Origin: Klebsiella phage iPHaGe-KPN-11i
Strand: one strand, 5' to 3'
Sequence record: OR637327.1
DNA length: 64,000 nucleotides
Each line of letters begins with the position of its first letter. The stretch's first letter is position 1. Position numbers and translations under genes: made by a program. Positions 1,900-60,481 of this stretch are shown in pieces. The notes under the pieces are model-generated. The model ran no database searches. It saw nothing but the letters and a program-made list of their open reading frames with translations, and was not told the origin of the DNA.

Positions 1900-1928
1900 A
1901 ATATACAAAAACCCCTCACATAATGCAA
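1900..1928 (-). promoter_or_regulatory. PeSL-like element (minus strand) TTGCAT-N17-TATATT in a hairpin, followed by the TCGAAACGAA leader
   Basis: Minus strand: AAAAACCCCTTGCATTATGTGAGGGGTTTTTGTATATTACACACATCGAAACGAA. Confidence 0.55.
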
Positions 1929-1948
1929 GGGGTTTTTGAAAAATTTAA

Positions 1949-2146
1949 TCAACTGGCGAAAATTTCTTCGAGAAACCAGACAGTAGATTTGTTGTTTTTT
2001 ACTCGCGTAAGCTCTAACTGATTGTCTTTAAAGGCTTCTTCGACATCAACCATAGTAACAACGTGCTTTTCGTTGGTGATGTGATTATGAAGATAGTAAC
2101 GCCGGATTTCCGGCGTTGTCAGTAAGGTAAATTCGCGTTCTAGCAT
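1949..2146 (-). CDS. hypothetical protein (65 aa)
   Basis: ORF directly downstream of gp46 on the same strand, overlapping it by 7 nt. Confidence 0.4.
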   Translation of the reverse strand: MLEREFTLLTTPEIRRYYLHNHITNEKHVVTMVDVEEAFKDNQLELTRVKNNKSTVWFLEEIFAS

Positions 2147-3831
2147 TTTCGGATCTCCATCTTCGAGAAGCGCCCCAATTTAGCCATGACGATATGACGA
2201 TCGAAATCACCAGGGTCTAAATCGTTGTGGCTAATCACCATGATATTACCATCAATACCATTCAGAACAGCCCCTACAGCAAACGCACCTTCCTTATCGA
2301 GAGCGTTATCAAAAACTTCGTCCAGAATCAGCAGAGACAGATCCACGCCTGATACTTTACTTGTCACGTCACGCCATGTGAACAGAATAGACAAGTTGAT
2401 GCGAGCGCGTTCGCCTTGACTGAATGACGCATAACTGAAATCATCGCGCCCCAGTGATTTGATCGATTCGTTGAACTCGTCATCTAAAGTGAACTGATAA
2501 TCCGCACCCAACAGATCCAGATAATATGCTATCTGTTTGTTGAAGTACGGAATATAGCGCTTAACAATGCTGGCCTTAACGCCGGAATCTTTCAACATAT
2601 CAGTAACAATACCACGAATGTATTTTTCCTTGACGTAGCCTTGTCGTTTTTCGTTCAGTTCTGCTTCCTGCTGTTGCAACTGCTTCACGGGTTCTTCATC
2701 AATGACTACTTCCGCGCTTGCCTGTTCCATGATCGCCTGTGCTCGTTTAGCGTTGGCAACTTCGTTTTGCAGTGTACCTTTCAGGGCTTCATATTTGGTT
2801 TTCAGGGCATTGAGTGCGCGTTGCTGTTGAAGCAAGTCATTCATGATCCCTTGTAACTCGTCTTGTTTGGTTTTGATCAGGGTTAAACGCTGTGTACCCG
2901 CTTTGATGTTCTCTGCGATCTCCGCCATACGCTCAGGAGTGGGTTTAATCGCTTGCTTACAGGCCGGACACTCACCGCCTTTCTGATACATCACCTCCAG
3001 CTTTTTAAACTGTTCTACAGTCATTGAAAGCCGCGAATAACCATCACGGAGTTTGTTGATATCTTCCGTCCGGTCTTCTCCAGCGATCACCGATTCCGCA
3101 ATCTCCGCTTGCAACTGCATAAGCTGTGCTTTGATGTTCTTTGCGGTTTCTACGTGACTATCGTAGATCTCTTTGTATCGGGCGTTGTTCTGGTTCGCTT
3201 TCGCTCGCTGTTCGTCAATGAAGCGCTGATGTGTTGCGATCTGCTGCTGGATGTGATTACCCTGCATTGAGAGCGTATCCAACTGCTGATTAACACCGCG
3301 AATGTATGACTTGTTCAGCTTATCCATTTCACTGATGACGGACAGAGACAGCAAATCTTCAACCAGTTTCCGGCGTTCTGGGGTTTTCAGTTCCATGAAT
3401 GGGGTGTAACCCGCTGTACCCAGAACGATAACCTGTTTGAAGCCCACAAGGTTGATGTTCAGCATAGATTCAAGCTGTGCCTGATAATCACCTGCTGCGG
3501 AGTCTTCCGGCAACTTCTCACCGTTCTTCCAGATCTCGAACACCTTCGGCTTTTGTCCGCGCACCACTTTGTACGAGTCTTTCCCGTATTCGATTTCCAG
3601 TTCAACCAGGCATTTCTTTTTGTTGACGCTGTTCACCAACTGCCCGACTTTTAGATCGCGGAATGACTTACCGAACAGGGCATAGGTTAACGCCTCGATC
3701 AGTGTCGATTTACCGCCACCGTTTTTCCCCGTGATCAGGGTTTTCTTTGCTGTATCAAATTCCAGTTCGATCGGGGTATTCCCGACCGACAGAATATTTT
3801 GATACTTAATTTTTTTGAAGTTTAGTTTCAT
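2140..3831 (-). CDS. 46: recombination endonuclease subunit gp46 (Rad50/SbcC-like ATPase)
   Basis: N-terminal Walker A GKNGGGKST, long coiled-coil middle, CxxC zinc hook (GGECPACKQ), C-terminal LLILDEVFDNALD. Length of 563 aa matches T4 gp46. Confidence 0.93.
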   Translation of the reverse strand: MKLNFKKIKYQNILSVGNTPIELEFDTAKKTLITGKNGGGKSTLIEALTYALFGKSFRDLKVGQLVNSVNKKKCLVELEIEYGKDSYKVVRGQKPKVFEIWKNGEKLPEDSAAGDYQAQLESMLNINLVGFKQVIVLGTAGYTPFMELKTPERRKLVEDLLSLSVISEMDKLNKSYIRGVNQQLDTLSMQGNHIQQQIATHQRFIDEQRAKANQNNARYKEIYDSHVETAKNIKAQLMQLQAEIAESVIAGEDRTEDINKLRDGYSRLSMTVEQFKKLEVMYQKGGECPACKQAIKPTPERMAEIAENIKAGTQRLTLIKTKQDELQGIMNDLLQQQRALNALKTKYEALKGTLQNEVANAKRAQAIMEQASAEVVIDEEPVKQLQQQEAELNEKRQGYVKEKYIRGIVTDMLKDSGVKASIVKRYIPYFNKQIAYYLDLLGADYQFTLDDEFNESIKSLGRDDFSYASFSQGERARINLSILFTWRDVTSKVSGVDLSLLILDEVFDNALDKEGAFAVGAVLNGIDGNIMVISHNDLDPGDFDRHIVMAKLGRFSKMEIRKC

Positions 3832-4096
3832 TTAAAATCCGTTCACATAATTCAGTGATCATTTGAACAACTGATGAATCAATACTATATGATAGCGTAT
3901 CATCTTCCAGTGTATCAAGCATGAAGATTGACCATGTTCTTGATGAATGCCATGCACCCTTCATGATGGTCAAACAAACTGCGCTGGTTTCCCCTGCTTC
4001 GTCGGATGTGGAAATGATGTGCTTCATTCCCAACATACGCAACAGGTGAGAATATCGGGGGTTCGCCCCGAAATATTCATCATAACGGCTATGCAC
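3806..4096 (-). CDS. hypothetical protein (96 aa) between 47 and 46
   Basis: ORF overlapping the gp47 stop and the gp46 start on the same strand. No recognisable motif. Confidence 0.35.
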   Translation of the reverse strand: MHSRYDEYFGANPRYSHLLRMLGMKHIISTSDEAGETSAVCLTIMKGAWHSSRTWSIFMLDTLEDDTLSYSIDSSVVQMITELCERILNETKLQKN

Positions 4097-5108: not shown

Positions 5109-5133
5109 ATAAACCTCAAACCCCCGAAGGGGT

Positions 5134-6491: not shown

Positions 6492-6522
6492 CAGTTTCAT
6501 TCAACAACAACGAGGTATTGAA

Positions 6523-10710: not shown

Positions 10711-11709
10711 ATGGAACTTAGTGAAAACGTACAGTTAATCGAAACCAAATACGGCAAAATCTCCCAGTCTCCCGAAGAATTCGCATGGGATCAGCGCTAT
10801 CGCCCGACGACGATCGATGAATGCATTCTCCCTGCTGCTGATAAAGCGACGATGCGCGGCTTCATCAAGTCTGGACGAATCGACAACATGACTCTGGTTT
10901 CTGATTCCCCAGGTACGGGTAAAACAACGCTGGCGCTGGTTCTGGCTAACGAAGTTGATGCGGAAGTGATGTTTGTCAACGGTTCCGATTGTGGTGTGAA
11001 CTTCATCCGTAACGAACTGGATCGTTACGCGTCCTCTATGACGCAGAAGAAAGGCGGTAAAATCATTCTGATTGACGAATTCGATCGCCCAGGCATGGCA
11101 GAAGCACAGAAGCACATGCGTAGCTTTATCGAAGCGTACAGCAAGAACGTTACTGTTATGATCACCGCGAACAACATCAACGGGATTCACCCTGCGCTGA
11201 TCTCCCGCTGTCCGGTAGTCAAGTTCGGTTCCCCGTCGAAGGAAGAACGCGTTGAACTGATGAAGCAAATGATCAAACGCTGTTTCGGTATCCTCGAAAT
11301 CGAGAAAATCGAATATGACCAGCAGGTGATCGCCGGATTCGTTAAGAAGCACTACCCAGACGCGCGATCCATCGTTAAAGCTCTTGGGTTCTATTCTAAG
11401 CGCGGCAAAATTGATGCTGGTATTCTGTCTGAGATTGTTGGTTCGGATATCACACCAGTAATTGAGGGGCTTAAAGCGAAGAACTTCAAAGCACTGCGAG
11501 CCGAAGCAATCAAGTACGCGCCTGAGTATGAAACTTTCCTGGCTAAACTTCTGGATGCGGTATACCCGATCGTCACCAACGAATCTAAGGTTGCACTCAT
11601 TCAGGCAGTAGGCGAAAACAACGCACAGTACGGGCTGGCAGTGAACAAAGAGATTCACCTGCAATACCTGTTCATGGGCTTAATGCTTACCCTCGCGTGG
11701 GAGGCTTAA
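10711..11709 (+). CDS. 44: clamp-loader large subunit gp44 (AAA+)
   Basis: QRYRPTTIDECILPA...SDSPGTGKTTLA...MFVNGSDC...ILIDEFDR...SRC, colinear with T4 gp44. Confidence 0.93.
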   Translation: MELSENVQLIETKYGKISQSPEEFAWDQRYRPTTIDECILPAADKATMRGFIKSGRIDNMTLVSDSPGTGKTTLALVLANEVDAEVMFVNGSDCGVNFIRNELDRYASSMTQKKGGKIILIDEFDRPGMAEAQKHMRSFIEAYSKNVTVMITANNINGIHPALISRCPVVKFGSPSKEERVELMKQMIKRCFGILEIEKIEYDQQVIAGFVKKHYPDARSIVKALGFYSKRGKIDAGILSEIVGSDITPVIEGLKAKNFKALRAEAIKYAPEYETFLAKLLDAVYPIVTNESKVALIQAVGENNAQYGLAVNKEIHLQYLFMGLMLTLAWEA

Positions 11710-11711: not shown

Positions 11712-12284
11712 ATGTCACTGGCTGCTTTTCTCGATGAAGAAGAACTGAACGAACATGAAGCGGCCTGGCGTTCTAAAGACTGGGACAAGATCGAAGAACT
11801 TGTGAAAGAGTACACCAAAGACAAGGAAAACACCTTGTTTATGGTGCTCGAAGAACTGAACAACGGGAAGACACCATTACGGATCTCTGCCCTTGATTCA
11901 TACGATAAGTTTTTCATCGACAATGCAATGAGCCAGCATATCGAAACGCTGATTCCTGCATACACGATGAATATGATCGGTTCCGGTTTACCAGACCAGG
12001 CGCACTTTGATTATTACCTGCATACGGTGCGCAAAGGTAAGCGGTTCGGGGCGTGGGCTAAACTCACCGAAGATAACGAAATGAAAGTTATCCTTCATGT
12101 TCTCCAAAAACGATACGGTGTAAATACATGTATAGCAATGGAATATTACGAAGAACTCAAACAGCTTGAAAAACTGGACGAGTGGAAGCGGAAAAATATG
12201 AAAGTTGCTTTATCTGTGTTGGCTGATGTTGTGAAAAATAAAACCGACCAGAAAAAGGTTGAACAACTAATAAAGAAATGGTGA
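11712..12284 (+). CDS. 62: clamp-loader small subunit gp62
   Basis: MSLAAFLDEEELNEHEAAWRSKDW versus T4 MSLFKDDIQLNEHQVAWYSKDW. Start lies 2 nt after the gp44 stop. Confidence 0.88.
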   Translation: MSLAAFLDEEELNEHEAAWRSKDWDKIEELVKEYTKDKENTLFMVLEELNNGKTPLRISALDSYDKFFIDNAMSQHIETLIPAYTMNMIGSGLPDQAHFDYYLHTVRKGKRFGAWAKLTEDNEMKVILHVLQKRYGVNTCIAMEYYEELKQLEKLDEWKRKNMKVALSVLADVVKNKTDQKKVEQLIKKW

Positions 12285-12656: not shown

Positions 12657-12666
12657 TCAAAAGCCC

Positions 12667-12695
12667 TTGCAGAAATGCAGGGGCTTTGTTATATT
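12667..12695 (+). promoter_or_regulatory. PeSL-like element: promoter TTGCAG-N17-TATATT embedded in a terminator-like hairpin
   Basis: AAAGCCCTTGCAGAAATGCAGGGGCTTTGTTATATTGG; the -35 hexamer lies in the 5' arm of the stem. Confidence 0.55.
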
Positions 12696-15740: not shown

Positions 15741-15792
15741 GACCTGACGGGGCAGAAATGCCCCATTTATATAAATTTGTGAGGAATATATT

Positions 15793-20775: not shown

Positions 20776-21270
20776 ATGAGCGATCAATTAATCAAAAACA
20801 TGGATTTAACCTACAGTGTGCGAATGATTCGCCTACTGAAAAAACCCTGGACTGAATGGACGGCTTACAAGCTGGGGATCATCGACGGTCAAGGCGAAGT
20901 AATCAAGAACCCGAAGACGAAGGAAGAACTGGAAGCATATTCCCCGTTCCATCGCTCTGTAAGGCACATCAAGCGCCGTTTAAACGCGGTTCCTTATATG
21001 TCTGGGTTCATGAACCTTACGAGCGCGTATGACTCGCTACGGAACCGCTGGAACCTGACCGAGCAAGAGCACGAAGAAATCATGATGAACCTCCCAGAAC
21101 TTCGCGAAAGACTCAACGAAGAAATGGTTGCAGGTGATTCAGGCGGAAGTGTAGATAACATTGCTTCGGGTGTGACTACAGGCGCGATCACGAACAAAGG
21201 GCCGAAGGTTCTGGGTTCTACGCGTCCATATAAACGCAAACGGAAGATCATGAAAAATGATACGGAATGA
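20776..21270 (+). CDS. hypothetical protein (164 aa)
   Basis: ORF with a basic C-terminus (RPYKRKRKIMK). Confidence 0.45.
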   Translation: MSDQLIKNMDLTYSVRMIRLLKKPWTEWTAYKLGIIDGQGEVIKNPKTKEELEAYSPFHRSVRHIKRRLNAVPYMSGFMNLTSAYDSLRNRWNLTEQEHEEIMMNLPELRERLNEEMVAGDSGGSVDNIASGVTTGAITNKGPKVLGSTRPYKRKRKIMKNDTE

Positions 21271-21418
21271 CCTTGAGCGGTTGCCTATTCGCGAAATCGA
21301 AAAGCGGATCGAGAACATGAAAGGCATTTTAGAAAAATATCCGTATATGCAGGGCATTGTCGTTTATATTGAACGGCTACGCGCTGCAAGGGCATCCAAG
21401 ATAGGAAGGAAGAAATGA
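21257..21418 (+). CDS. possible small protein (53 aa)
   Basis: Own translation MIRNDLERLPIREIEKRIENMKGILEKYPYMQGIVVYIERLRAARASKIGRKK. Fills the 21271-21414 gap, and its stop overlaps the next start (ATGA). Below the ORF-track size cut-off. Confidence 0.3.
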   Translation: MIRNDLERLPIREIEKRIENMKGILEKYPYMQGIVVYIERLRAARASKIGRKK

Positions 21419-26307: not shown

Positions 26308-26585
26308 TTAAATTATCATTTGTAGGTAAAACTGTACATGCAAAAACACTGAACGAAGCAAAAGCGCAGATGTTTGACATTCTCATGAACCCCGCGTTCG
26401 TTAAAGTCGAATACGATGAATATGTTGTTCAGCCTGGCGATAGCATGTATTCAATCGCTGAAAAATTATACGGTCGTGGTGAGCGCTGGCAGTCCATCGC
26501 TAAGTTGAACCGTAAAACCGTTAGCAATGCAAGCTATATCCTTCCGGGGATGGTTCTGAAATTGCCTCAGTTAGTCGAATTATGA
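26304..26585 (+). CDS. LysM-domain protein (93 aa)
   Basis: C-terminus YVVQPGDSMYSIAEKLYGRGERWQSIAKLNRKTVSNASYILPGMVLKLP is a LysM peptidoglycan-binding motif. Confidence 0.6.
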   Translation: MIKLSFVGKTVHAKTLNEAKAQMFDILMNPAFVKVEYDEYVVQPGDSMYSIAEKLYGRGERWQSIAKLNRKTVSNASYILPGMVLKLPQLVEL

Positions 26586-26595
26586 TAAAAAGCCC

Positions 26596-26624
26596 TTGCA
26601 TTCGTGCAGGGGCTTTGTTATTTT
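26596..26624 (+). promoter_or_regulatory. PeSL-like element TTGCAT-N17-TATTTT in a hairpin
   Basis: AAAAGCCCTTGCATTCGTGCAGGGGCTTTGTTATTTTG. Confidence 0.5.
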
Positions 26625-26653
26625 GTAGGGACTGAAACAAAAGAGGATAAAAC

Positions 26654-27321: not shown

Positions 27322-27335
27322 TTTTAATAGCCTCT

Positions 27336-27364
27336 TGCAATGCAAGAGGCTTTTTTGTATATTG
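27336..27364 (+). promoter_or_regulatory. PeSL-like element TTGCAA-N17-TATATT in a hairpin
   Basis: AATAGCCTCTTGCAATGCAAGAGGCTTTTTTGTATATTG. Confidence 0.55.
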
Positions 27365-27388
27365 CGCACATACCAAAAGGAGGCAACT

Positions 27389-27874
27389 ATGACACGTATT
27401 AACACAATCGATCCTTCTCTTCTGCTGAACGAACACCTGATCGCAGAACTGCGCGAACTCCCTCGCATCCCCAATGCCGTTTTATCCGGTAAGGCAAAAA
27501 TCAACCTGTCAAAAATCCCTGCTGTGTATACGCTGGGAACCGGACACGTAACCTTCTTTTACAATAAGCTGGGATACCTTCGCGATCGTCATGTTGCATT
27601 ACGTGCTGAATACCTCACGCGTAACGGTAAAGAATACATGGACGGTGCATACGAAGATTTCGATCTTAGTCCGCTGTCAAACTCCCTGTTTCATCGTCAT
27701 TTGTGCGCGGACTGGCAACCAACGCCGGAATCAGTGAAAATCAATGTTGAGCGTATCCGTGAACGTTTCGAACTGCGCAAACGTGCTTATCGGTTCGGTA
27801 CTGAGATCATCAACGACGAAGCGGCATGGGATACGTATTACGAAAAATTAAAAGAAAAATACGATTTTCTTTGA
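27389..27874 (+). CDS. denV: endonuclease V (pyrimidine-dimer DNA glycosylase)
   Basis: MTRINTIDPSLLLNEHLIAELRELPRIPNAV...LGTGHVTFFYNKLGYLRDRHVAL versus T4 DenV [31 protein letters not shown]...[23 protein letters not shown]. Confidence 0.93.
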   Translation: MTRINTIDPSLLLNEHLIAELRELPRIPNAVLSGKAKINLSKIPAVYTLGTGHVTFFYNKLGYLRDRHVALRAEYLTRNGKEYMDGAYEDFDLSPLSNSLFHRHLCADWQPTPESVKINVERIRERFELRKRAYRFGTEIINDEAAWDTYYEKLKEKYDFL

Positions 27875-27883
27875 TTTGGGTAT

Positions 27884-27911
27884 TGACCCAAATTTCGATA
27901 TGCAGTATATT
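27884..27911 (+). promoter_or_regulatory. early promoter TTGACC-N16-TATATT followed by the TCGAAACGAAAC leader
   Basis: TTGACC at 27884-27889, TATATT at 27906-27911, leader motif at 27919-27930. Confidence 0.5.
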
Positions 27912-27948
27912 ACACACATCGAAACGAAACAGACAAAAGGAACGCATC

Positions 27949-28110
27949 ATGAAAAACTTAGAAGCCAAAGTAGTTAAAGTCCTGGTTAAGAACGGTTTCA
28001 ACGAAAACGACGCGGTAGCAATGGTTGAAAAGAATCTGAATGATGCGTTGAAAGTTAGACCAGAAGCAAAACCTGCTAAACTCGCAGAGGTGATTGTATG
28101 CATCATGTAA
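27949..28110 (+). CDS. hypothetical protein (53 aa)
   Basis: MKNLEAKVVKVLVKNGFNENDAVAMVEKNLNDALKVRPEAKPAKLAEVIVCIM. AAAAGGA SD. The ORF track's 27826 start lies upstream of the promoter. Confidence 0.45.
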   Translation: MKNLEAKVVKVLVKNGFNENDAVAMVEKNLNDALKVRPEAKPAKLAEVIVCIM

Positions 28111-28301
28111 AAGTAAGCATCAAGGATATCACGGTGGGTGACACCGTGATCCACGAAGGGAAAATGAAGACTGTCGGGAAAAACGATATCAAGCACGACC
28201 CTTTGTTTGGTGTTCTCCTGTTCGGTGATAGTTTCAACTTGGGGAGAACTTTTATTGACCGGGTTATTTTCCCGAAATGGTATCAAGGGAAACGGGTTTA
28301 A
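28098..28301 (+). CDS. hypothetical protein (67 aa)
   Basis: Overlaps the preceding gene by 13 nt. Confidence 0.4.
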   Translation: MHHVKVSIKDITVGDTVIHEGKMKTVGKNDIKHDPLFGVLLFGDSFNLGRTFIDRVIFPKWYQGKRV

Positions 28302-28386
28302 CAAATAGCACTTTTTGCTAAAGACTTCACGGGATAGCTTTGATATAGTTATCCCATCGAAACGAAACAGACTTTAGGAGATTGCC

Positions 28387-34088: not shown

Positions 34089-34103
34089 TTTACAAAAAGC
34101 CTC

Positions 34104-34133
34104 TTGCATCGCGGGAGGCTTTTTTGCTATATT
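34104..34133 (+). promoter_or_regulatory. PeSL-like element TTGCAT-N18-TATATT in a hairpin
   Basis: AAAAGCCTCTTGCATCGCGGGAGGCTTTTTTGCTATATTG. Confidence 0.55.
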
Positions 34134-34160
34134 GTCCTCACTGATTGGGGAGGATATAAA

Positions 34161-34700
34161 ATGTTCAAAACTCGTAGCGATATGGAAATAACCATTTGGG
34201 CCAAAAGCATCATGGCGAAACATGGCTTATCCCACTGGTCTTTCAAAATCAACGGACGTTTCAAAAGGACTTTAGGTCAGTGTTCATACACTCGTAAGTT
34301 GATTGAGTTACGTCGCGATCATGTTAAGGAAGACACATACGAGAACGTTTTAGATACTCTCATGCACGAAATTGCTCATGCTCTGACCGAAGGGGCTGGA
34401 CACGGGATCGTATGGCAGCGTAAAGCTATCGAGTTGGGCGCACAGCCTACGCCAACCAAAAGCCGTGTTCGCGAGCAATCAGTGATTCGGGAAAGCAAAA
34501 AGGATATGTATGCTTTGTTCCTGAAAACTCCGAACGGCGAAGTTTATCAGTGCAATATGCCTGAAAAGATGTACAATGAGATCCAGGAAGGTAAACGCAA
34601 CCTTGCGAACATCTACATTTCAGGAAACAAAAGAGCAACCAAAGGGCGCTTAGTAGCGCGTAAATTGACACCAGAACAATATGCAGAGGCTATTCAATGA
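34161..34700 (+). CDS. putative Zn-metalloprotease, HExxH (SprT/WLM-like), 179 aa
   Basis: LDTLMHEIAHAL with a downstream acidic/His region. Start at 34161 after SD GGGGAGGA. Confidence 0.4.
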   Translation: MFKTRSDMEITIWAKSIMAKHGLSHWSFKINGRFKRTLGQCSYTRKLIELRRDHVKEDTYENVLDTLMHEIAHALTEGAGHGIVWQRKAIELGAQPTPTKSRVREQSVIRESKKDMYALFLKTPNGEVYQCNMPEKMYNEIQEGKRNLANIYISGNKRATKGRLVARKLTPEQYAEAIQ

Positions 34701-39226: not shown

Positions 39227-39270
39227 TTATCTAAAATGGGGCTGAAAAGCCCCAATAAGGAAAATAATAT

Positions 39271-39501
39271 ATGTTTGTAATTTCTTCGTACTATGATTCA
39301 CGTCAACGAGTATCGTTGTCTTCTATTTCCAAAGCACCAAAAGATATAGATGACTTCGGATTGCTTAACTTTGTCAAAAAAGAAATCGACCGCGTTGTTC
39401 CAGAAAAATACAGAATTGTTAAAGGATCTGATAGCTTAACTATCGTAAAACTGTATGGCGAAGTCAGTATTCAACATCATGTGCCATTATATCCTCGATG
39501 A
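39271..39501 (+). CDS. hypothetical protein (76 aa)
   Basis: ORF with SD AAGGAAA. Confidence 0.45.
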   Translation: MFVISSYYDSRQRVSLSSISKAPKDIDDFGLLNFVKKEIDRVVPEKYRIVKGSDSLTIVKLYGEVSIQHHVPLYPR

Positions 39502-39519: not shown

Positions 39520-39939
39520 ATGCCTGGATTAACCGCGCTTCTACTCACCGCGATCGCAAGCGAGCACTTAAAGAAGCAAAACGTAAACAGAAACATAAAG
39601 GTAAGTGTGATGAAAACCGCTTTGATTATTCTTGAGGAAATCCCAGAAAACACGGGGTTGTATCTCGTTGAAGCCGACGAAGATATCATTGAAATCCTCA
39701 AAACCGCTCACGGGCATTATGTGAACGGATGCAACAACACCCCAGAACAGGAACATGCTGTCAATATCGTTAACCTCATGTTAGGGCCGCGTACAGATGA
39801 CAACCTGGCATGGGCGAGTGAATCCAACATTCCTCATGAGTATGTCGGGATGTATTATCAGTGCAACGTTGACGATAAAGCGCCACTGATACCGGAAAAA
39901 CAGATCGATTTAGTAGTTCGAACAGGTTTCTTCTTATGA
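39520..39939 (+). CDS. hypothetical protein (139 aa; alternative start at 39610 gives 109 aa)
   Basis: No SD at 39520. The ATG at 39610 has an AAGG 9 nt upstream. Confidence 0.4.
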   Translation: MPGLTALLLTAIASEHLKKQNVNRNIKVSVMKTALIILEEIPENTGLYLVEADEDIIEILKTAHGHYVNGCNNTPEQEHAVNIVNLMLGPRTDDNLAWASESNIPHEYVGMYYQCNVDDKAPLIPEKQIDLVVRTGFFL

Positions 39940-40163
39940 GTTCACAAATTCTGTTCAGCAAAGAAGATCCATTAGGCACAGATTCATCGGTGCAGCGCTT
40001 ATTCTGGCACATGGATTATACAAAAAATCGTTGTCGTAACCCAAACAATACATGGGGAAGCAACGAAGACATTGATAAAGCAAAAATTTATCCTCGCGGA
40101 AAAGCATACTGGAAAATTTTTGATATCCATCTTCATAAAGTTATGAAAGATTCGAACGCATGA
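39936..40163 (+). CDS. hypothetical protein (75 aa)
   Basis: ATGA overlap with the previous gene. Confidence 0.4.
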   Translation: MSSQILFSKEDPLGTDSSVQRLFWHMDYTKNRCRNPNNTWGSNEDIDKAKIYPRGKAYWKIFDIHLHKVMKDSNA

Positions 40164-40173
40164 TAAAAAGCCC

Positions 40174-40203
40174 TTGACTTCGGTTGAGGGCTTTTGTTAT
40201 ATT
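40174..40203 (+). promoter_or_regulatory. PeSL-like element TTGACT-N18-TATATT in a hairpin, followed by the TCGAAACGAAAC leader
   Basis: AAAAGCCCTTGACTTCGGTTGAGGGCTTTTGTTATATTGG; leader at 40211-40222. Confidence 0.55.
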
Positions 40204-40239
40204 GGCTTTGTCGAAACGAAACCACTAAGGAGATTCACC

Positions 40240-45063: not shown

Positions 45064-45070
45064 AAAAGAA

Positions 45071-45088
45071 AAAGCCCCGAAGGGCTTT
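45071..45088 (-). terminator. intrinsic terminator between the two fibre paralogues
   Basis: On the minus strand AAAGCCCTTCGGGGCTTT followed by a TTTCTTTTT run. Confidence 0.6.
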
Positions 45089-45091
45089 TAA

Positions 45092-47270: not shown

Positions 47271-47274
47271 AAAA

Positions 47275-47290
47275 AGGGGCTTTCGCCCCT
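47275..47290 (-). terminator. intrinsic terminator after gene 35
   Basis: Minus-strand AGGGGCGAAAGCCCCT followed by TTTTT. Confidence 0.55.
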
Positions 47291-48883
47291 TTATCTCACG
47301 ATTGACAGTTTAACGTCTTTAGCCGATACCGTACCGATGTTTGTGTTGTTTGGATAACGGTATAAACCGAAATCAAACGTAACAGCACCAGCAGGAATAA
47401 CCCCTTCGTTTTTATAGAATGAATATACGTTAGGAATCGTACCAACATCACGCATGTTGATCCCTGAAATATACGTATTATTCGCGTCCCAGAACTGCAT
47501 TAAGATATATGCGCCTTTATTGTTGGCGATTGCGTTTGCATCGCGTTTCATTTGGCATTGCATACGGATCGTATCACCAGCTTTTAAGCCATAACTGCTT
47601 AGTGATGCTTTTGTTACCGCCTCTTGCTGGGTAGCAGTCCATTCTTTGAACTGGTACTCCGCTGTATTTGTCGAAGTGTATTCAACCGGATCAGAAACAA
47701 TATAATCAAGTTCAGCAAAGTTATGCGAAATGATTTTCTTATCACTTGCAACACCAGTAGGCGAAACGGGTAGAGAAAGCAATTTATCAATCGGGTTCTC
47801 ATTTCCGCTTGCGTCCACTTCGGAAAGTGTCTGCATTCGAACACCGTTCACACCAAGCGCAGCACCATTCCGGTTTATTTCTTCGCGAGGTACTTTTGCG
47901 ATCTGGACGTTGCGACATTGCGCCAGCCCCACTTTAACGGTAGACGGATAATGATATACCTGCGAACCCATTTTGGTGTTTACCGGATCTGACGGAACAG
48001 TGAAATATCCTGATAATGAATGCCACTGATCGGGGGCTAATCCAGTTGTTCGAAGAATGGTTGATGTGATCCATTGTCCGGTACTGTTTTCAGTCCACAT
48101 ATACAGGTGAACTTCCCCCCCTGCATCACGAAGTTCTTGCGAACAATATAGTTCACCCGTGAATTTGAAGATATCACCCAGAAAAACATCACTACCAACA
48201 ATCCACGTCCCGTAAGAGTGGAAGCCATAAAGATCCCCGCTATTCTGGTATGTCTGGACATCATCGACCATTCTTTCTGGAATACCAGTTACCCCGATAT
48301 CACTGAATTCATCAAACACAACTTCAACAAAACTCGTCGTATTGTCTTTCAGGCTACCAGCACCACCGACAAAGTTTTCCATGCAAATCTTTTTCATCGT
48401 AGATGAATAGATAGCTGAATAGGATGAACGGTGAGAATAATTGGTTGTGGTGATCGGGATATTAAAGAACCGAGTTTCAGGCCACGCAACAGAACCTATT
48501 TTCCTCATTGTTGCTAAAAAGTCATCGTCACTTTTGATAGCATCGAAAGTATAAAAACACACAATTCTGTTCGCTGGAAGTGAATTCAGGTAGTCTTTAA
48601 TCGCATTCCCGTTCGTAGCAGGATCACCATACATATCGAATGCCTTGTAATCCAATAATGCTAAAGTTGTTCCATCAATGACAGCCAGGTTAATTCCGCG
48701 AGCAGCTTGTGTTCGTCTGTTTATAATATCAGCCCCGTTAATAGATACCTCAACCGAGTTGACCGCAGAATCGTTATTCGTTCCACGGACAACAAGGCGA
48801 TATTTCACGGCGTTTGCTTCTGAAAACACATTCGCCGTGAAACTATCAGGGCCGAATAACGCCATAAATTCGTTATTCGCCAT
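47291..48883 (-). CDS. 35: long-tail-fibre hinge protein gp35-like (530 aa)
   Basis: N-terminus MANNEFMALFGPDSFTANVFSEANAVKYRLVVRG versus T4 gp35 MEKFMAEFGQGYVQTPFLSESNSVRYKISIAG; NRIVCFYTF versus NRIVAILTS. Sits between the gp34 and gp36-like genes. Confidence 0.75.
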   Translation of the reverse strand: MANNEFMALFGPDSFTANVFSEANAVKYRLVVRGTNNDSAVNSVEVSINGADIINRRTQAARGINLAVIDGTTLALLDYKAFDMYGDPATNGNAIKDYLNSLPANRIVCFYTFDAIKSDDDFLATMRKIGSVAWPETRFFNIPITTTNYSHRSSYSAIYSSTMKKICMENFVGGAGSLKDNTTSFVEVVFDEFSDIGVTGIPERMVDDVQTYQNSGDLYGFHSYGTWIVGSDVFLGDIFKFTGELYCSQELRDAGGEVHLYMWTENSTGQWITSTILRTTGLAPDQWHSLSGYFTVPSDPVNTKMGSQVYHYPSTVKVGLAQCRNVQIAKVPREEINRNGAALGVNGVRMQTLSEVDASGNENPIDKLLSLPVSPTGVASDKKIISHNFAELDYIVSDPVEYTSTNTAEYQFKEWTATQQEAVTKASLSSYGLKAGDTIRMQCQMKRDANAIANNKGAYILMQFWDANNTYISGINMRDVGTIPNVYSFYKNEGVIPAGAVTFDFGLYRYPNNTNIGTVSAKDVKLSIVR

Positions 48884-52590: not shown

Positions 52591-52619
52591 AAAAAGGCGA
52601 CCATCAAGTCGCCTTTTTC
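52591..52619 (-). terminator. intrinsic terminator
   Basis: Minus-strand AAAAAGGCGACTTGATGGTCGCCTTTTT. Confidence 0.6.
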
Positions 52620-55339: not shown

Positions 55340-55388
55340 GATTACCTCAAATAAAAAAGGGGATGCCCGTAAGCACCCCCGAATTATA

Positions 55389-56342: not shown

Positions 56343-56346
56343 GGTA

Positions 56347-56508
56347 TTATCTCTCATAGAGGGCTTGCAATTTAGTAACAAATTCATCTTTGCTACGGGC
56401 TTTGATTACAACTTCCAGACGAGATTTGGCTTCTGCTTTTGCAGCGCCCAAACTCCAACCATACACATCAACCAGTTCACAGATTTCTTTGATGATTGCG
56501 TTTTTCAT
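56347..56508 (-). CDS. small hypothetical protein (about 53 aa)
   Basis: MKNAIIKEICELVDVYGW... between nrdG and the 317-aa gene. Confidence 0.35.
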   Translation of the reverse strand: MKNAIIKEICELVDVYGWSLGAAKAEAKSRLEVVIKARSKDEFVTKLQALYER

Positions 56509-56564
56509 TTTCTCGTCCTCAAGTTTGTTTCGATGTGGATATCTTAACAGAACTACCAACCAGG

Positions 56565-57056
56565 TCAAGCGATATTTTTAATTTCGATGGAATTCTTTTT
56601 GAACTCAATCATTCGCTGATTATCCGAACCGCGAAACGGTTTCTTAGTCGGTAGATCCTTTTCGTACCGTCCATCGATCAGAACATCAATGAATGGTAGC
56701 AGCTTAGAGCGTTCTGTATCGCCCTGTAAGGCTTCGAGGGTGTAACCCGTCCAAATCCACACATCTTTATCAGGGAACGTCGCACGGACGCGCTGGAGCA
56801 GTTTTAAGAGCGTTGGATGATTGGTGCGGTAAAACGGATCGCCGCCTGTAAGCGTCAACCCGTCCACATGGGGATTTGAAAGGAGTTTAATCAACTCGTT
56901 TTCAGTCTCTTCGGTATATGGTGTACCGTTGCGGGGATTCCATGTACTACGGTTATAGCAACCTTCGCATTTATGATTGCAGCCAGTGACAAACAACACT
57001 ACACGGATTCCTTTACCGTTAACCACATCCATGTTATAGATGCGGTCAAAGTTCAT
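56565..57056 (-). CDS. nrdG: anaerobic ribonucleotide reductase activating protein NrdG (radical SAM)
   Basis: CNHKCEGCYN radical-SAM cysteine cluster and GGDP; 163 aa. Confidence 0.85.
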   Translation of the reverse strand: MNFDRIYNMDVVNGKGIRVVLFVTGCNHKCEGCYNRSTWNPRNGTPYTEETENELIKLLSNPHVDGLTLTGGDPFYRTNHPTLLKLLQRVRATFPDKDVWIWTGYTLEALQGDTERSKLLPFIDVLIDGRYEKDLPTKKPFRGSDNQRMIEFKKNSIEIKNIA

Positions 57057-57114
57057 CAGCCTTTCTCCCCTGGGAACAGATTGTTCAGCGCTTGGGTATC
57101 TAATTTCATTTGAA

Positions 57115-57309: not shown

Positions 57310-57368
57310 GATTTAGCCCCTATAGTTTGTTGTCTACAGGGGCATATTATAACATCATGCGTCGTCCG

Positions 57369-57638
57369 TCAACTCTTTTTGAATCCGACATAATACGCAT
57401 CAGATCCATTCCATGTGGAGGCGTTAACGCTACCCAACAGAACACGACAAGGCATATTATTATGCGCAGACTCTACAACCTGGGAGACTGAATCCAGCGG
57501 ATTGCTACCAGACACCCAGCGGAGCAGATGACGATCATCACCGTTAATCGGATCAACGAATTCAAAGCTGATACCGTTTTCAATCAGTTCGTGCAGAAGA
57601 AAGTTTATCGCTTTGCATTGCGCTTTGTTGATCAGCAT
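57369..57638 (-). CDS. hypothetical protein (89 aa)
   Basis: ORF overlapping the upstream gene by 7 nt. Confidence 0.4.
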   Translation of the reverse strand: MLINKAQCKAINFLLHELIENGISFEFVDPINGDDRHLLRWVSGSNPLDSVSQVVESAHNNMPCRVLLGSVNASTWNGSDAYYVGFKKS

Positions 57639-58579: not shown

Positions 58580-58583
58580 AGCA

Positions 58584-58604
58584 AAAAAGGGGCTTTCGCC
58601 CCTT
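58584..58604 (-). terminator. intrinsic terminator after the PspA-like gene
   Basis: Minus-strand AAGGGGCGAAAGCCCCTT followed by TTTTTT. Confidence 0.55.
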
Positions 58605-58608
58605 CCTC

Positions 58609-59205
58609 TTATTTCGCGTTCAGGGAGTCGATGTAAGCGCTAACGTCAGCGGAGGTTACAGAAGCGGCATTTTTGCCACCCAGCAACACATCAATCTTCG
58701 TCACGATGGTATCGACGCTTACGGAGGTGTGGCCTACAGCGGCGATCACGTCTTCCGGTACAGTCAGACCCAGACTTTCGGTTTGCTTGTTCAGTTCGAT
58801 GATCTCCAGGTTGATTTTGACATCAGCCAGTTTGCGATCCAGTTCGACGACAGAGAGATCAATCTCTTTGTTCATCCCTTCCAGTTCTTCGATCTTCGTC
58901 TGCAAGCCCTGCCAGATGTTACGATGTTGCAGCGCCAGCACATAATGACTGTTGGACACTTCCTGCCCCGCCGCCAGCAGTTTTTTGATCTCCGACTCTT
59001 TACCAGTGTGAAGGTCTTTGTGTTCTTTGACTTTCTTTTTCAACTTCACGATTTCCTGAACAGCAGAAACGCGAGTATGTTGCAGACGGTCGATCTCTTT
59101 GATCAGGATACGTGCAGCACTGCGCCAGGCTTCTTCTGGGGAAGTGTTTTGTTCAATTGCAGTTTCAACTTTACCAGTCACGAATGCTACGATTTTCTTG
59201 AACAT
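58609..59205 (-). CDS. PspA/IM30 (Vipp1/ESCRT-III-like) family coiled-coil protein (198 aa)
   Basis: MFKKIVAFVTGKVETAIEQNTSPEEAWRSAARILIKEI... followed by long heptad coiled coil; same N-terminal architecture as PspA ([28 protein letters not shown]...). Confidence 0.55.
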   Translation of the reverse strand: MFKKIVAFVTGKVETAIEQNTSPEEAWRSAARILIKEIDRLQHTRVSAVQEIVKLKKKVKEHKDLHTGKESEIKKLLAAGQEVSNSHYVLALQHRNIWQGLQTKIEELEGMNKEIDLSVVELDRKLADVKINLEIIELNKQTESLGLTVPEDVIAAVGHTSVSVDTIVTKIDVLLGGKNAASVTSADVSAYIDSLNAK

Positions 59206-59214
59206 AATTTTACC

Positions 59215-59715
59215 TTATTTTATTTCAAATTGATTGGTGAACCATTCAGGGGCTTTAACAACTTTCCCCTCTCTGATATAACCGATTTTACATAGTTCGT
59301 TGGTCAAGTCAAGTCTTTTTCCACCCACCATGTAAAATTTTAATCTGCTTACTGGGATCACCGGACGGATAACGTCACGATAGCCAAAATTCGAGCTACG
59401 CACCACTATAGAGAGCATACGCAAACGGTTGATACATCCGGTATACGAACGCCCAGTAGCGCGGGAGAAGTCCTCCAGCGTAACGCCAGGGGCAATAGCA
59501 CCTATCAGATCAAGATAATCCTTTTCAACCCAGAACCGCCCGACAGAACATTTCGATACACCCTCAGCCATTTTTGCGTTTGGGTGTTTCTCGTCTTCGC
59601 GCTTCTTCTTGTCCTCAAGGAACTTATTGAACCGGATTTCTTCGAGTCGGTTTTCTCTTTCTACCCGTGCGCGTACACGGGAGGGAAACAGAGTATCAAG
59701 GATTTTCCCGATCAT
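59215..59715 (-). CDS. hypothetical protein (166 aa)
   Basis: ORF with a basic N-terminus. Confidence 0.45.
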   Translation of the reverse strand: MIGKILDTLFPSRVRARVERENRLEEIRFNKFLEDKKKREDEKHPNAKMAEGVSKCSVGRFWVEKDYLDLIGAIAPGVTLEDFSRATGRSYTGCINRLRMLSIVVRSSNFGYRDVIRPVIPVSRLKFYMVGGKRLDLTNELCKIGYIREGKVVKAPEWFTNQFEIK

Positions 59716-59954
59716 ATCGTTGGCTTTCCGTTTGGTAGTTTCAGATCGAAAGGAACGTTCACAGGTCGGACGGTTTCTAATTGGAGATATTGTTCCATCC
59801 CCACACGCTTACCACCTACTTTGTTATAACGAATGTTCTTTCCGTCATAGCCTACAGCCTGTGAAATGTAGTAGTGTTTAGTTTCGCGTAAACACTCCAT
59901 CCATTCTTGTGTTCCGGTTTTGTTGCGTACCCGCGCCTTTAATGGAAACATCAT
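59712..59954 (-). CDS. hypothetical protein (80 aa)
   Basis: ATGA overlaps on both sides. Confidence 0.4.
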   Translation of the reverse strand: MMFPLKARVRNKTGTQEWMECLRETKHYYISQAVGYDGKNIRYNKVGGKRVGMEQYLQLETVRPVNVPFDLKLPNGKPTI

Positions 59955-60439
59955 TCACCCCGTAGAACTTTCAGTTCACCAGACAAACGCTGTAGATTGG
60001 CGGTTGCAGTATCGTAACGTTTTTCGGTGTCTTTCAGGGTAGTTTCCCGCGCCTTACGCAAGAATTTTTCCAGATCACCTGGTTTCGTCACCAGCTTACC
60101 ATCTACGTAAATTCGTCCCAGCAGGTGAGAACAATCCAGCAGTTGTTGCGCGTCGGCTTTTTCAACAGCAGGTTTAAGCGCGACAAACTTTTTAAAGAAT
60201 CCGCGATCCTCGTTATCAAACAGATACGAATCTTCGGAATACCATGTTGTGCCATTGGCATCAACGATCCCATTAACACCTTTCCGATCGCAGTGCGTTA
60301 CCTTAATCGGAAACACAACAGATGAAAGTTGATTAGGCGATAGAGGACTACCACGCAAAGCTAAATTGCGATACACAGTCCCAAAACTTTCTTCATCGCG
60401 AAATTCAAAATAGTCTTTTGTCCAGTACATCATTTTCAA
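59951..60439 (-). CDS. hypothetical protein (162 aa)
   Basis: First gene downstream of the minus-strand PeSL at 60453-60481. Confidence 0.45.
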   Translation of the reverse strand: MKMMYWTKDYFEFRDEESFGTVYRNLALRGSPLSPNQLSSVVFPIKVTHCDRKGVNGIVDANGTTWYSEDSYLFDNEDRGFFKKFVALKPAVEKADAQQLLDCSHLLGRIYVDGKLVTKPGDLEKFLRKARETTLKDTEKRYDTATANLQRLSGELKVLRGE

Positions 60440-60452
60440 TACCTCATAGTTT

Positions 60453-60481
60453 CGTTATGTGCAATATAACAAAAGCCCCTC
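60453..60481 (-). promoter_or_regulatory. PeSL-like element (minus strand) TTGCGA-N17-TATATT in a terminator hairpin after nrdD
   Basis: Minus strand: AAAAAGCCCCTTGCGAAAGTGAGGGGCTTTTGTTATATTGC. Confidence 0.5.

Follow-up and report, generated by a model that had tools for sequence, protein, structure and literature searches.

Seven Composite Units and Neighboring Sites

The window, by which we mean the whole 64,000-nucleotide stretch analyzed here, comes from Klebsiella phage iPHaGe-KPN-11i (OR637327.1) and belongs to the genus Pseudotevenvirus (RB43/GAP161 group), with ~98% identity to sequenced phages. It contains exactly seven intergenic units of 64–76 nt each (P1 to P7) that follow a single plan: a hairpin of A-run, GC-stem, and T-run, a −35 hexamer (TTGNNN) within its 5′ arm and loop, and a −10 hexamer 17–18 nt downstream. 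The units are listed below together with three other sites (Px, Py, and Pz) and adjoining genes; spans run from −35 to −10.

1064–1882, minus strand: gene after P1, 268–272 aa, CapR-domain/zinc-ribbon
1883–1948, minus strand: P1; hairpin 1906–1938, −35 TTGCAT 1923–1928, −10 TATATT 1900–1905 (span 1900–1928), leader ACACACATCGAAACGAA
12657–12724, plus strand: P2, between regA and a 105-aa ORF, gene 43 next; hairpin 12660–12687, −35 TTGCAG 12667–12672, −10 12690–12695 (span 12667–12695)
26586–26653, plus strand: P3, upstream of a 47-aa membrane-like ORF; hairpin 26589–26616, −35 TTGCAT 26596–26601, −10 TATTTT 26619–26624 (span 26596–26624)
27322–27388, plus strand: P4; hairpin 27329–27351, −35 TTGCAA 27335–27340, −10 27358–27363 (span 27335–27363); then denV (27389–27874)
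27883–27948, plus strand: Px, early promoter without hairpin; TTGACC, 17 nt, TATATT 27906–27911, leader ACACACATCGAAACGAAAC; then a 53-aa ORF
28303–28386, plus strand: Py, T1-like-type unit; 21-nt repeat AAATAGCACTTTTTGCTAAAG (28303–28323), hairpin GGGATA..TATCCC (28331–28355) with an extended −10, TGATATAGT, in its loop, leader CATCGAAACGAAAC; then a 110-aa ORF
34089–34160, plus strand: P5, after topoisomerase gene 52; hairpin 34094–34124, −35 TTGCAT 34104–34109, −10 34128–34133 (span 34104–34133); then a SprT-like gene (34161–34700)
40164–40239, plus strand: P6; hairpin 40166–40195, −35 TTGACT 40174–40179, −10 40198–40203 (span 40174–40203), leader GTCGAAACGAAAC; then a 266-aa ORF
56505–56568, minus strand: Pz, early promoter; TTGACC 56563–56568, 16 nt, TAAGAT 56541–56546, leader CACATCGAAACAAAC
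60440–60503, minus strand: P7, after nrdD; hairpin 60471–60500, −35 TTGCGA 60486–60491, −10 60463–60468 (span 60463–60491); then a 160–162-aa ORF

The original prediction had put forward seven promoter-in-hairpin elements, and all seven were found. Five of its intervals stand as given, while the fourth needed correction by 1 nt (to 27335–27363) and the last by 10 nt (60463–60491, not 60453–60481). Its −35 set, TTGCA(T/G/A) or TTGACT, describes six copies but lacks the TTGCGA of P7. The −10 hexamer is TATATT in six units and TATTTT in the other, at spacers of 17, 17, 17, 17, 18, 18, and 17 nt, in agreement with the 17–18 nt that had been claimed, and five of the seven carry an extended −10 (TGn). 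The −35 hexamers match TTGACA in three of six positions (five of six in P6).

Stems of 10–15 bp, loops of 3–4 nt, and an adjoining 3′ U-rich tract give the hairpins the makeup of intrinsic terminators, although the tracts measure 3–6 U, with those of P2, P3, P6, and P7 short or broken by G (UUUGUU). In all seven units, the hairpin begins 3–10 nt past the stop codon of the preceding gene. Downstream of each promoter come a leader of 17–37 nt, a Shine-Dalgarno sequence, and the start codon, and the orientation of each unit is that of its flanking genes. A generic terminator scan listed P2 and not P1, probably because the T-run of P1 pairs with its A-run and was counted as stem; a generic promoter scan listed neither P1 nor P2, because their −35 hexamers match TTGACA in only three of six positions.

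In RB43, an early promoter (Pe) and a TransTerm terminator were both predicted at the orthologues of P2, P3, P4, P5, and P7 (Nolan et al., 2006; PMC1524935), and the two predictions overlap in each case (RB43 coordinates):

3955–4005: Pe, P5 orthologue; terminator 3977–3995
11413–11463: Pe, P4 orthologue; terminator 11434–11454
12151–12201: Pe, P3 orthologue; terminator 12170–12191
26324–26374: Pe, P2 orthologue; terminator 26343–26364
157530–157580: Pe, P7 orthologue; terminator 157540–157561

We found no discussion of this overlap in the accessible text of that paper. Placement, orientation, stem covariation (see below), and the RB43 predictions together support, in silico, the proposed reading of each unit as a terminator for the gene before it and a sigma70-type promoter for the gene after it.

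Homology Breaks and Gene Shuffling in Relatives

Comparison with seven relatives placed homology edges at or within 25 nt of five of the seven elements, which supports the mobile-cassette reading of the original prediction; the flanking-gene comparison that it had suggested makes crossovers in the −10 and leader visible in the junction sequences of relatives. Indels or replacements were found at denV, at Py (a two-ORF indel), and at the boundaries of P6, P3, P7, and Pz. Apart from denV, indels occur at hairpin 5′ edges or within the repeated leader CATCGAAACGAAAC.

At P1, RB43 homology has an edge at 1962, and the downstream gene is replaced in RB43 and Lw1. Lw1 is without the LysM ORF upstream of P3 (right edge 26582). 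RB43, IME-CF2, and Lw1 are without the 75-aa ORF (39936–40163) before P6; their homology returns at the hairpin's 5′ edge (40164/40165). RB43 has an extra ORF of 238 nt at P7, inserted at 60428–60433, the leader/start codon boundary. Five relatives carry a two-ORF insertion of 411–483 nt at Py, whose junction falls within the repeated leader sequence ATCGAAACGAAAC. Pz is predicted to drive a 53-aa ORF (56347–56508) that the window shares with its closest relative alone, and six relatives diverge directly after its −10, with edges at 56521–56541.

The denV gene downstream of P4 is a T4 gene that occupies another position in T4, and Px forms the 3′ boundary of its cassette. Edges at denV lie at 27329 in RB43, Miller, CfP1, and Xman, and at 27371 in EC-W1; in genomes without the gene, homology resumes at 27905–27911. 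Among the 60 listed of 178 records, edges recur at 27329, 27905–27911, and 28298, and denV is absent from at least seven distinct genomes of close relatives. In EC-W1, IME-CF2, and Lw1, a P4-type hairpin is joined straight to the Px leader, while in the window and RB43 denV lies between direct repeats, GTATATT(G/A)C(G/A)CACAT. EC-W1 alignments overlap here by 15 nt. Identity to RB43 is 90% across the denV block but 77–78% in its flanks. Judged from these junction sequences, the presence or absence of denV is a matter of crossover within the −10 (GTATATT) common to two promoters.

Indel boundaries occur at five of seven PeSL (promoter-early stem-loop) junctions and at 25 of 82 other junctions, a modest enrichment (~6-fold; Fisher p = 0.04, with a 25-nt tolerance chosen after the data had been seen). 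This number is small enough to suit an alternative in which the elements are conserved terminator/promoter junctions with no role of their own in shuffling, and indels pile up beside them only because operon boundaries tolerate insertions and translationally coupled runs do not. Many junctions without any element also have indels (e.g., 21260–21409 and 57070–57080), P2, P3, and P5 keep their positions in every genome examined, and the longest intergenic spacers are PeSL junctions, all of which fit mere tolerance. We nevertheless consider it unlikely. Junction overlaps of 11–17 nt fall exactly within shared −10 or leader sequence, edges sit on the first hairpin base (27329 and 40165), a relative shares a whole repeat-bounded cassette with an unrelated Yersinia phage, and recombination between PeSLs has been seen experimentally in RB49 (PMC2839356). 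We infer that recombination, rather than selection alone, places breakpoints at the elements.

Excess Over Chance and Covariation of the Stems

A motif search, another check named in the original prediction, bore out the family. The strict pattern (TTGNNN, 16–18 nt, TANNNT, and a hairpin embracing the −35) returned exactly the seven elements in the window, against means in dinucleotide shuffles of 0.19 for stems of ≥10 bp and 1.3 for stems of ≥6 bp. An nhmmer profile built from a relative's copies gave the same seven as full-length matches in the window (E 1e-13 to 2e-21), together with two further matches of partial length. The near-identical genome OR637326.1 contains 14 strict copies, each directed at a downstream start codon and all outside the structural blocks (1–32, 58–69, and 132–139 kb).

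One further candidate, 15745–15775 upstream of uvsX, had been proposed as a degenerate relative. A hairpin with GCAGAAATGC does exist there (15749–15764), but it is a plain 6-bp stem with neither A/T runs nor TTG and without an nhmmer match, and we do not count it as a family member. It is followed by TATAAATT (15770–15777), which matches the T4-type late promoter TATAAATA at seven of eight positions, 43 nt before the uvsX start codon.

The RNAs of the seven elements fold at −16.4 to −21.0 kcal/mol (z −4.7 to −5.7), and all 32 distinct cores from eight genomes at −15.5 to −21.2 kcal/mol. Across 12 distinct copies of equal geometry (144 cells), 100% of cells are paired, compared to 87.3 ± 1.9 in shuffles (0/500 reach this), and both sides changed in 18 cells, i.e., compensatory changes, compared to 7.5 (0/500); with partners slid by 1–3 columns, 24–67% pair. 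Individual units agree: P2 is kept in all relatives with changes that preserve pairs, and the P5 orthologue in RB43, IME-CF2, and Lw1 has GCCC/GGGC vs. GCCTC/GAGGC, with pairing kept.

Could these be ordinary intrinsic terminators, their promoter-like hexamers a by-product of AT-rich intergenic context and the T-run? The −35 hexamers are weak relative to the sigma70 consensus, and a generic scan finds 43 promoter-like sites vs. 34.5 ± 5.4 in shuffled sequence, as such an origin would allow. It is made very improbable by the constant position of TTG in the stem of all 14 paralogues, always 17–18 nt from the −10, whereas about a dozen other hairpin and T-run terminators in the window (GCCCC-tetraloop-GGGGC) have no embedded TTG. 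Where TTGAC replaces TTGCA, the 3′ arm is altered to match, and therefore hexamer and pairing are both kept. The extended −10 in five of seven units and the conserved leader and Shine-Dalgarno sequence downstream also speak for a promoter, as do the scores of the RB43 orthologues in Nolan's model: 24.7–25.4 bits for P2 and P3 and 29.7 for P7, close to the upper end of a list ranging from 5.8 to 31.2 (P4 and P5 score ~18 bits). Least credible of all is a main role of the palindromes at the DNA level or in RNA processing (as sites for a phage protein, endonuclease VII acting on a cruciform, or RNase III), with transcription signals secondary: Arbiol et al. speculated on the conserved GC stem as a protein target, and the outer stem AAAGCCC/GGGCTTT is invariant in aligned copies, but the inner stem varies freely with pairing kept, which indicates selection on structure and not on a sequence-specific site, Rfam gave no family match for the elements, and the T-run and position directly after stop codons are what a terminator needs.

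Proposed Mechanism

Under the combined terminator and promoter reading, the hairpin in the RNA of the upstream gene would act as intrinsic terminator and 3′-end stabilizer, probably in both directions given its A-run/T-run symmetry. At the DNA level, the same stretch would be a host sigma70 early promoter, with the −35 (TTGCA or TTGAC) supplied by the 5′ arm and loop and a −10 of TATATT, usually with the extended TGn. Since the 3′ arm and T-run form the 17–18-nt spacer, upstream transcripts would end within it. New transcripts are expected to start ~7 nt past the −10, with an unstructured A/C-rich leader (often AUCGAAACGAAAC...) and Shine-Dalgarno sequence. The 14 units per genome share −10, leader, and hairpin core, and some copies also a 21-nt upstream repeat; such short homologous stretches could be substrates for the recombination machinery of the phage. 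Genes would be inserted, deleted, or replaced between units as self-sufficient cassettes.

Relation to the T1-Like Repeat

T1-like phages have a 21-nt intergenic direct repeat, aaATAGCACnnnTTGnTAAAA, whose function the authors of the TLS study called unknown (PMC11447400). The repeat of Py, ~82 nt upstream of the start codon in the direction of transcription, matches it at 14 of 14 specified positions; the only exact match in the window (28305–28322) lies within Py, and a profile based solely on TLS also detects Py (E 4e-10). Py resembles 16 TLS units in having the repeat, then a hairpin around an extended −10, then the same leader. In the relative's genome, three or four PeSLs also have the 21-nt repeat directly before the hairpin, as does the P4 orthologue of RB43, Lw1, and IME-CF2. 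P1–P7 have no match to this repeat, which lies ~76 nt upstream of the start codon in T1-like units, and they are therefore not T1-like repeat units despite the shared leader.

Yersinia phage YP10S2 (unclassified) has the same kind of repeat unit as T1-like phages. The 22 nt that separate TTGnTA from the −10 in T1-like phages are too many for it to serve as a −35. Most TLS hairpins surround or abut the −10, while in the other T1-like phages examined (Webervirus, Braunvirinae) and in YP10S2 the hairpin is mostly a plain terminator.

A wider reading, which we put forward tentatively and with some doubt, is that the PeSL-type unit is one homologous, horizontally mobile regulatory module across unrelated virulent Enterobacterales phages, a linker for single-gene cassettes between families. 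Its parts would be the upstream 21-nt repeat (ATAGCAC..TTGnTAAA), a stem-loop, an (extended) −10, the leader AUCGAAACGAA, and a Shine-Dalgarno sequence, and its range Straboviridae (Pseudotevenvirus and Slopekvirus; Krischvirus for the leader), Drexlerviridae, and a Yersinia phage. The promoter-in-hairpin form would be derived, a plain terminator having acquired a −35 in its loop. If so, the 21-nt repeat, an open question for the TLS authors, would be the upstream part of a promoter/terminator cassette.

Comparison With Known Systems

PeSLs were defined in RB49/phi1, with reporter evidence and mini-circles (Arbiol, Comeau, Kutateladze, Adamia, and Krisch, 2010; PMC2839356), and extended to PST/T4 and nt-1/KVP40 (Comeau, 2014; PMC4122927). 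The seven elements correspond to PeSLs in the sense of Arbiol et al. (2010), who had already noted PeSLs in RB43; the accessible part of that paper mentions “PeSL-like sequences” in the gene 43 region without description. Early transcription of gene 43 in RB43 has been described (PMC3486835). All seven have promoter hexamers ~17 nt apart, a stable stem-loop in or adjoining the promoter (judged by stem, fold energy, T-run, and covariation, with terminator activity as a prediction), and limits set on one side by the preceding gene's stop codon within AT-rich sequence and on the other by the Shine-Dalgarno sequence and start codon of the next gene. In OR637326.1 they are repeated and preferentially outside conserved structural modules. 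Each of the seven is probably a compact composite regulatory cassette of PeSL type. Gene gain, loss, and swap at terminator-promoter elements is a known mechanism, already described for related phages; relative to the accessible text of Nolan et al. (2006) and Arbiol et al. (2010), our analysis adds the anatomy of the embedded −35, covariation, and junction-level evidence.

As in RB49/phi1, the units are intergenic composites of AT-rich upstream sequence, sigma70-like early promoter, stem-loop, Shine-Dalgarno sequence, and start codon, dispersed in many copies in non-structural regions, with indels or replacements between relatives and crossovers from −10 to start codon. A stem-loop overlapping the −35 is one of five published PeSL subclasses. 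The leader common to RB49 PeSLs is TATAAT-ACACACATACCGAAACGAA, compared to TATATT-ACACACATCGAAACGAA here; leader and the stretch just past the −10 are shared, but stem sequence, polarity, and position differ, and nhmmer cross-matches rest on the leader only. Unlike RB49/phi1 PeSLs, those described here have a uniform architecture, a canonical A-run/C-run...G-run/T-run terminator embracing the −35, which is TTGCA and not the near-consensus TTGACA. They number 14 strict copies per genome, vs. many more in RB49 (51 early promoters predicted with Nolan's model).

The morons of lambdoid phages are promoter-gene-terminator insertions bounded by a separate promoter and terminator. Like them, the cassettes here are self-sufficient transcription units whose insertion leaves the resident genes on either side undisturbed; morons differ in having no repeated composite element to connect them and act as the recombination site.

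Putative terminator-promoter elements in the window

By megablast, the window belongs to the genus Pseudotevenvirus (RB43/RB16/GAP161 group) of the T4-type phages, and it is 98% identical to and nearly collinear with Klebsiella, Enterobacter, and Cronobacter phages, e.g., iPHaGe-KPN-12i (OR637326.1). The gene order starts with the rki/gene 46-47 region and the replication genes 45, 44, 62, regA, 43, uvsX, 41, 61, and dda, and continues through denV, the topoisomerase genes, rIIA/B, and the tail-fibre genes to nrdG/nrdD. All seven of the promoter-in-hairpin elements in the original prediction were found in this stretch (here P1-P7). Five of the predicted intervals were exact, but the last (P7) was off by 10 nt and the fourth (P4) by 1 nt.

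Terminator-promoter hairpin elements, from -35 to -10, with the gene downstream of each.
1900-1928 (-): P1; protein with a CapR domain and zinc ribbon
12667-12695 (+): P2; 105-aa ORF, then gene 43
26596-26624 (+): P3; 47-aa membrane-like ORF
27335-27363 (+): P4; denV
34104-34133 (+): P5; SprT-like protein
40174-40203 (+): P6; 266-aa ORF
60463-60491 (-): P7; 160-aa ORF in the nrdD/nrdG interval

In each element an A-run and a GC block precede TTGCA or TTGAC, which leads into a loop of 3-4 nt; the complementary arm and a T-run come next, and then the -10, TATATT except for one TATTTT. Spacers between -35 and -10 are 17 or 18 nt, as predicted, and five of the seven elements have an extended -10 (TGn ahead of the -10). 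Hairpin stems are 10-15 bp long, with folding energies of -16.4 to -21.0 kcal/mol (z -4.7 to -5.7). In every case the hairpin starts 3-10 nt after the upstream stop codon, the orientation is that of the neighbouring genes, and a 17-37-nt leader, a Shine-Dalgarno sequence, and a start codon follow, for a full intergenic unit of 64-76 nt. We consider the predicted reading of the elements, as a putative terminator joined to a sigma70-type promoter, to be right.

A strict scan of the window returned P1-P7 exactly and no other site, against a mean of 0.19 matches in dinucleotide shuffles when a stem of at least 10 bp was required. A nucleotide profile recovered the same seven as full-length matches (E 1e-13 to 2e-21), and a search of the whole window with Rfam at gathering thresholds gave no match. 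Roughly 12 other terminators with a hairpin and T-run occur in the window, all of the plain GCCCC-tetraloop-GGGGC kind without TTG. OR637326.1, the complete genome of the nearest annotated relative, contains 14 strict copies: seven are those of the window, the remaining seven are in other early regions, and none of the 14 is in a structural block. By this genome-wide count the pattern forms a repeated subclass of its own, distinct from the generic terminator, and the possibility that it is no commoner than ordinary terminators can be set aside.

Covariation in the stem

An MAFFT alignment of the seven cores left the stems one column off register between copies; covariation was assessed instead on 12 distinct copies of equal geometry, in which 144 of 144 cells pair, compared to 87.3 +/- 1.9% when the 3' letters were shuffled (none of 500 shuffles as high). 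Two-sided changes at four pairs account for 18 cells vs. 7.5 expected by shuffling (0/500), and sliding the partner columns by 1-3 lowers pairing to 24-67%. The 3' arm is GTTGA or GTCGG with the TTGAC hexamer and TGCAG with the TTGCA hexamer; it changes along with the hexamer, and therefore both hexamer and pairing are kept. Eight genomes supplied 32 distinct cores, all with folding energies of -15.5 to -21.2 kcal/mol. Swapping arms was a weak test, with a difference of only ~3 kcal/mol, because the arms are alike among copies.

A shared leader and further early promoter units

Many copies have a conserved leader 3' of the -10, ACACACATCGAAACGAAACAGACAAAAGGAAC..ATG, which in the window follows P1 and P6 and, in the degenerate form ACGAAAC, P7. 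The same leader is found 3' of three predicted early promoters absent from the original prediction (Px, Py, and Pz). Px and Py, together with P3 and P4, place four clustered promoter units in a stretch of 1.8 kb, and Pz is predicted to drive a 53-aa ORF (56347-56508, -) that is missing from six relatives.

Further early promoter units.
27883-27948 (+): Px; TTGACC, 17 nt, TATATT, without a terminator hairpin
28303-28386 (+): Py; exact 21-nt T1-like repeat AAATAGCACTTTTTGCTAAAG, hairpin enclosing an extended -10, leader CATCGAAACGAAAC
56505-56568 (-): Pz; TTGACC, 16 nt, TAAGAT, and the leader

At many early promoters the -10 is followed by (ACACA)CATCGAAACGAAAC, a conserved leader or putative initial transcribed sequence (1881-1899 (-), 27912-27930, 28355-28368, 40209-40222, and 56523-56537 (-)), and it is common to the intergenic regions of RB49 promoter early stem-loops (PeSLs) and to T1-like phages. 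Possible roles include promoter escape and translation enhancement. Full-text literature searches for the leader and repeat strings returned chance matches only.

Other arrangements of terminator and promoter were also observed. At 956-1027 (-), 23 nt separate a plain bidirectional terminator (1008-1027) from a non-overlapping promoter that comes after it (TTGACA, 17 nt, TAAAGT), whose hexamers are those described for the early promoter of RB43 rki (J-domain protein). In the tail-fibre region and ahead of uvsX, plain terminators are followed 3-10 nt later by late-promoter-like TATAAATA, CATAAATA, or TATAAATT, at these sites:
52591-52618 (-)
45070-45089 (-)
47273-47292 (-)
15749-15777 (+)
These sites appear to be the late-promoter counterpart of the composite design. 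One of them had been proposed as a degenerate relative of P1-P7 (15745-15775); a late-promoter-like sequence does follow it, but the profile search places the hairpin at 15749 outside the family.

Cassette boundaries in related genomes

We located the edges of homology by aligning seven relatives (OR637326.1, Kp_GWPR59, EC-W1, Entb_46, IME-CF2, RB43, and Lw1) to the window.

Homology edges at promoter units.
1962: adjoins P1; downstream gene replaced in RB43 and Lw1
26582: 7 nt 5' of the P3 hairpin; upstream LysM ORF missing from Lw1
27329: first base of the P4 hairpin
27371 and 27905-27911: -10 regions of P4 and Px
28298-28371: inside Py
40164/40165: first base of the P6 hairpin; three genomes without the 75-aa ORF
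56521-56541: directly 3' of the Pz -10; six relatives diverge
60428-60433: P7 leader/start-codon boundary; extra ORF in RB43

The gain or loss of denV can be followed to the base. Genomes without denV have hairpin-TTTTTTGTATATT-ACACACATCGAAAC at the junction, and those with it have the same hairpin and GTATATT, another leader, denV, and a second promoter ending GTATATT-ACACACATCGAAAC. The denV cassette therefore has a copy of the -10 on either side, and at this junction the alignments with EC-W1 share a 15-nt overlap. Among the close relatives listed, at least seven distinct genomes are missing denV. At Py, a two-ORF indel has its junction within repeated ATCGAAACGAAAC. The edges at 27329, 27905-27911, and 28298 recur among the 60 records listed of 178 surveyed. 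The block 27329-28298, from denV to the ORFs ahead of Py, shares 90% identity with RB43, Miller, CfP1, and Xman, but its flanks only 77-78%, which suggests a more recent exchange of this block, bounded by P4 and Py.

Indel boundaries were found at five of seven PeSL junctions vs. 25 of 82 other gene junctions (odds ratio 5.7, Fisher p = 0.04), a count that used a 25-nt tolerance picked after the data had been seen. The comparison with relatives favours the predicted interpretation of the elements as mobile regulatory cassettes. That cassettes are bounded by them holds at the edges listed, but many indels are located away from any element, and the elements appear to be hot spots for indels and not the sole route.

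Three indels were observed at other sites. A 457-nt insertion at 57070-57080, present in four relatives upstream of nrdG, was considered as element-linked and rejected, as no element is involved; a short direct repeat, CTGTTCCCAG..GG.GAAAGGCTGATG, lies on either side of the insertion within coding sequence, and the mechanism is probably unrelated to the promoter units. A window-specific ORF at 21260-21409 was likewise rejected, having no PeSL or leader at its edges; this 148-nt insertion holds most of a 53-aa ORF (21257-21418), is cleanly missing from five of the seven relatives, and corresponds to a diverged stretch in RB43 and IME-CF2. At 39228-39498, a 76-aa ORF (39271-39501) is missing from Kp_GWPR59, and the left edge adjoins a small GC hairpin, GGGGCTGAAAAGCCCC (39238-39253), without promoter features.

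Possible relationship to T1-like phages

A 96-nt unit from the relatives matches 381 phage records, including Slopekvirus and unrelated siphoviruses of 44-57 kb, namely Drexlerviridae (Webervirus, Braunvirinae) and Yersinia phage YP10S2. The siphovirus units have in common with the T4-type units the 5' flank AAATAGCACTTTTTGTTAAAA, T-run, -10, leader CATCGAAACGAA, and Shine-Dalgarno sequence. Their GC hairpin, where present, lacks an internal TTGCA; it is mostly a plain terminator and encloses the -10 in a few units. The 5' flank of these units is the 21-nt T1-like intergenic repeat, aaATAGCACnnnTTGnTAAAA. In the T1-like phage TLS this repeat has 18 intergenic copies ~76 nt upstream of start codons, and its function is listed as an open question (PMC11447400).

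We found a -10, mostly extended, 22 nt after each repeat in TLS, within or beside a hairpin in most units, and a CAT(C/T)GAAAC-type leader in about half of them. A profile built from TLS only matches Py in the window (28303-28372, E 4e-10) and four sites in OR637326.1 (E below 4e-8). None of P1-P7 carries the 21-nt repeat, so the link to T1-like phages concerns the wider family. No earlier connection of T4-type phages with the T1-like repeat came up in the literature searched.

One complete cassette is shared between the two groups. YP10S2 2499-2878 is 73.5% identical over 396 nt (E 2e-59) to OR637326.1 at ~166709-167099, outside the window, in a match that runs from one 21-nt repeat to the next and holds a terminator, -10, leader, and 92-93-aa ORF (65% identity by tblastn). 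The hairpin loop of the T4-type copy contains TTGCAACCGCCA, an insert bearing the -35, against ACGT in YP10S2; the shared cassette thus points to a plain terminator as the likely origin of the promoter-in-hairpin form. We take the shared cassette as direct evidence, at the level of sequence, that repeat-bounded cassettes cross phage family boundaries. In tblastn searches with ORFs of TLS, YP10S2, PWKp17, and BEK3, all matches were outside the window. The 110-aa ORF after Py was rejected as a T1-like gene; it is a widespread T4-like gene also present in cyanophages.

If the wider point holds, T1-like siphoviruses have this regulatory module and one or more complete gene cassettes in common with this phage group; genes would then move between phage families, and not within a genus alone, by PeSL-mediated shuffling, and the role of the 21-nt repeat would become directly testable. 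For this phage group, the results give a concrete map of predicted early transcription units and trace, base by base, the gain and loss of accessory genes (denV and several small ORFs), of use in annotating and engineering the many therapeutic Klebsiella, Enterobacter, and Cronobacter phages of Pseudotevenvirus.

Comparison with known PeSLs

PeSLs were defined in RB49 and phi1 as a sigma70-like early promoter preceded by AT-rich sequence, with a stem-loop at any of five positions (-35 overlap among them) and with a Shine-Dalgarno sequence and start codon downstream; evidence of promoter and terminator function came from reporter assays, crossovers were mapped to the interval between -10 and start codon, and mini-circles were detected (PMC2839356). 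"PeSL-like sequences" were already noted there for the RB43 gene 43 region, along with an nrdD association, and the concept was later extended to PST/T4 and nt-1/KVP40 (PMC4122927). The RB43 gene 43 transcript is early (PMC3486835), and in supplements to Nolan et al. (2006; PMC1524935) predicted RB43 early promoters overlap TransTerm terminators at the orthologues of P2, P3, P4, P5, and P7. Literature searches under the names Karamvirus, GAP161, CC31, and PG7 returned no detailed account of these elements for the genus.

RB49 PeSLs, read directly from the RB49 sequence, have a related leader, TATAAT-ACACACATACCGAAACGAA. By their predicted features P1-P7 are of this known kind, with an architecture that appears especially uniform, the terminator being wrapped round the -35. 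The PeSL story would thereby gain a fourth T4-type lineage and a cleaner architecture, with a true terminator round the -35.
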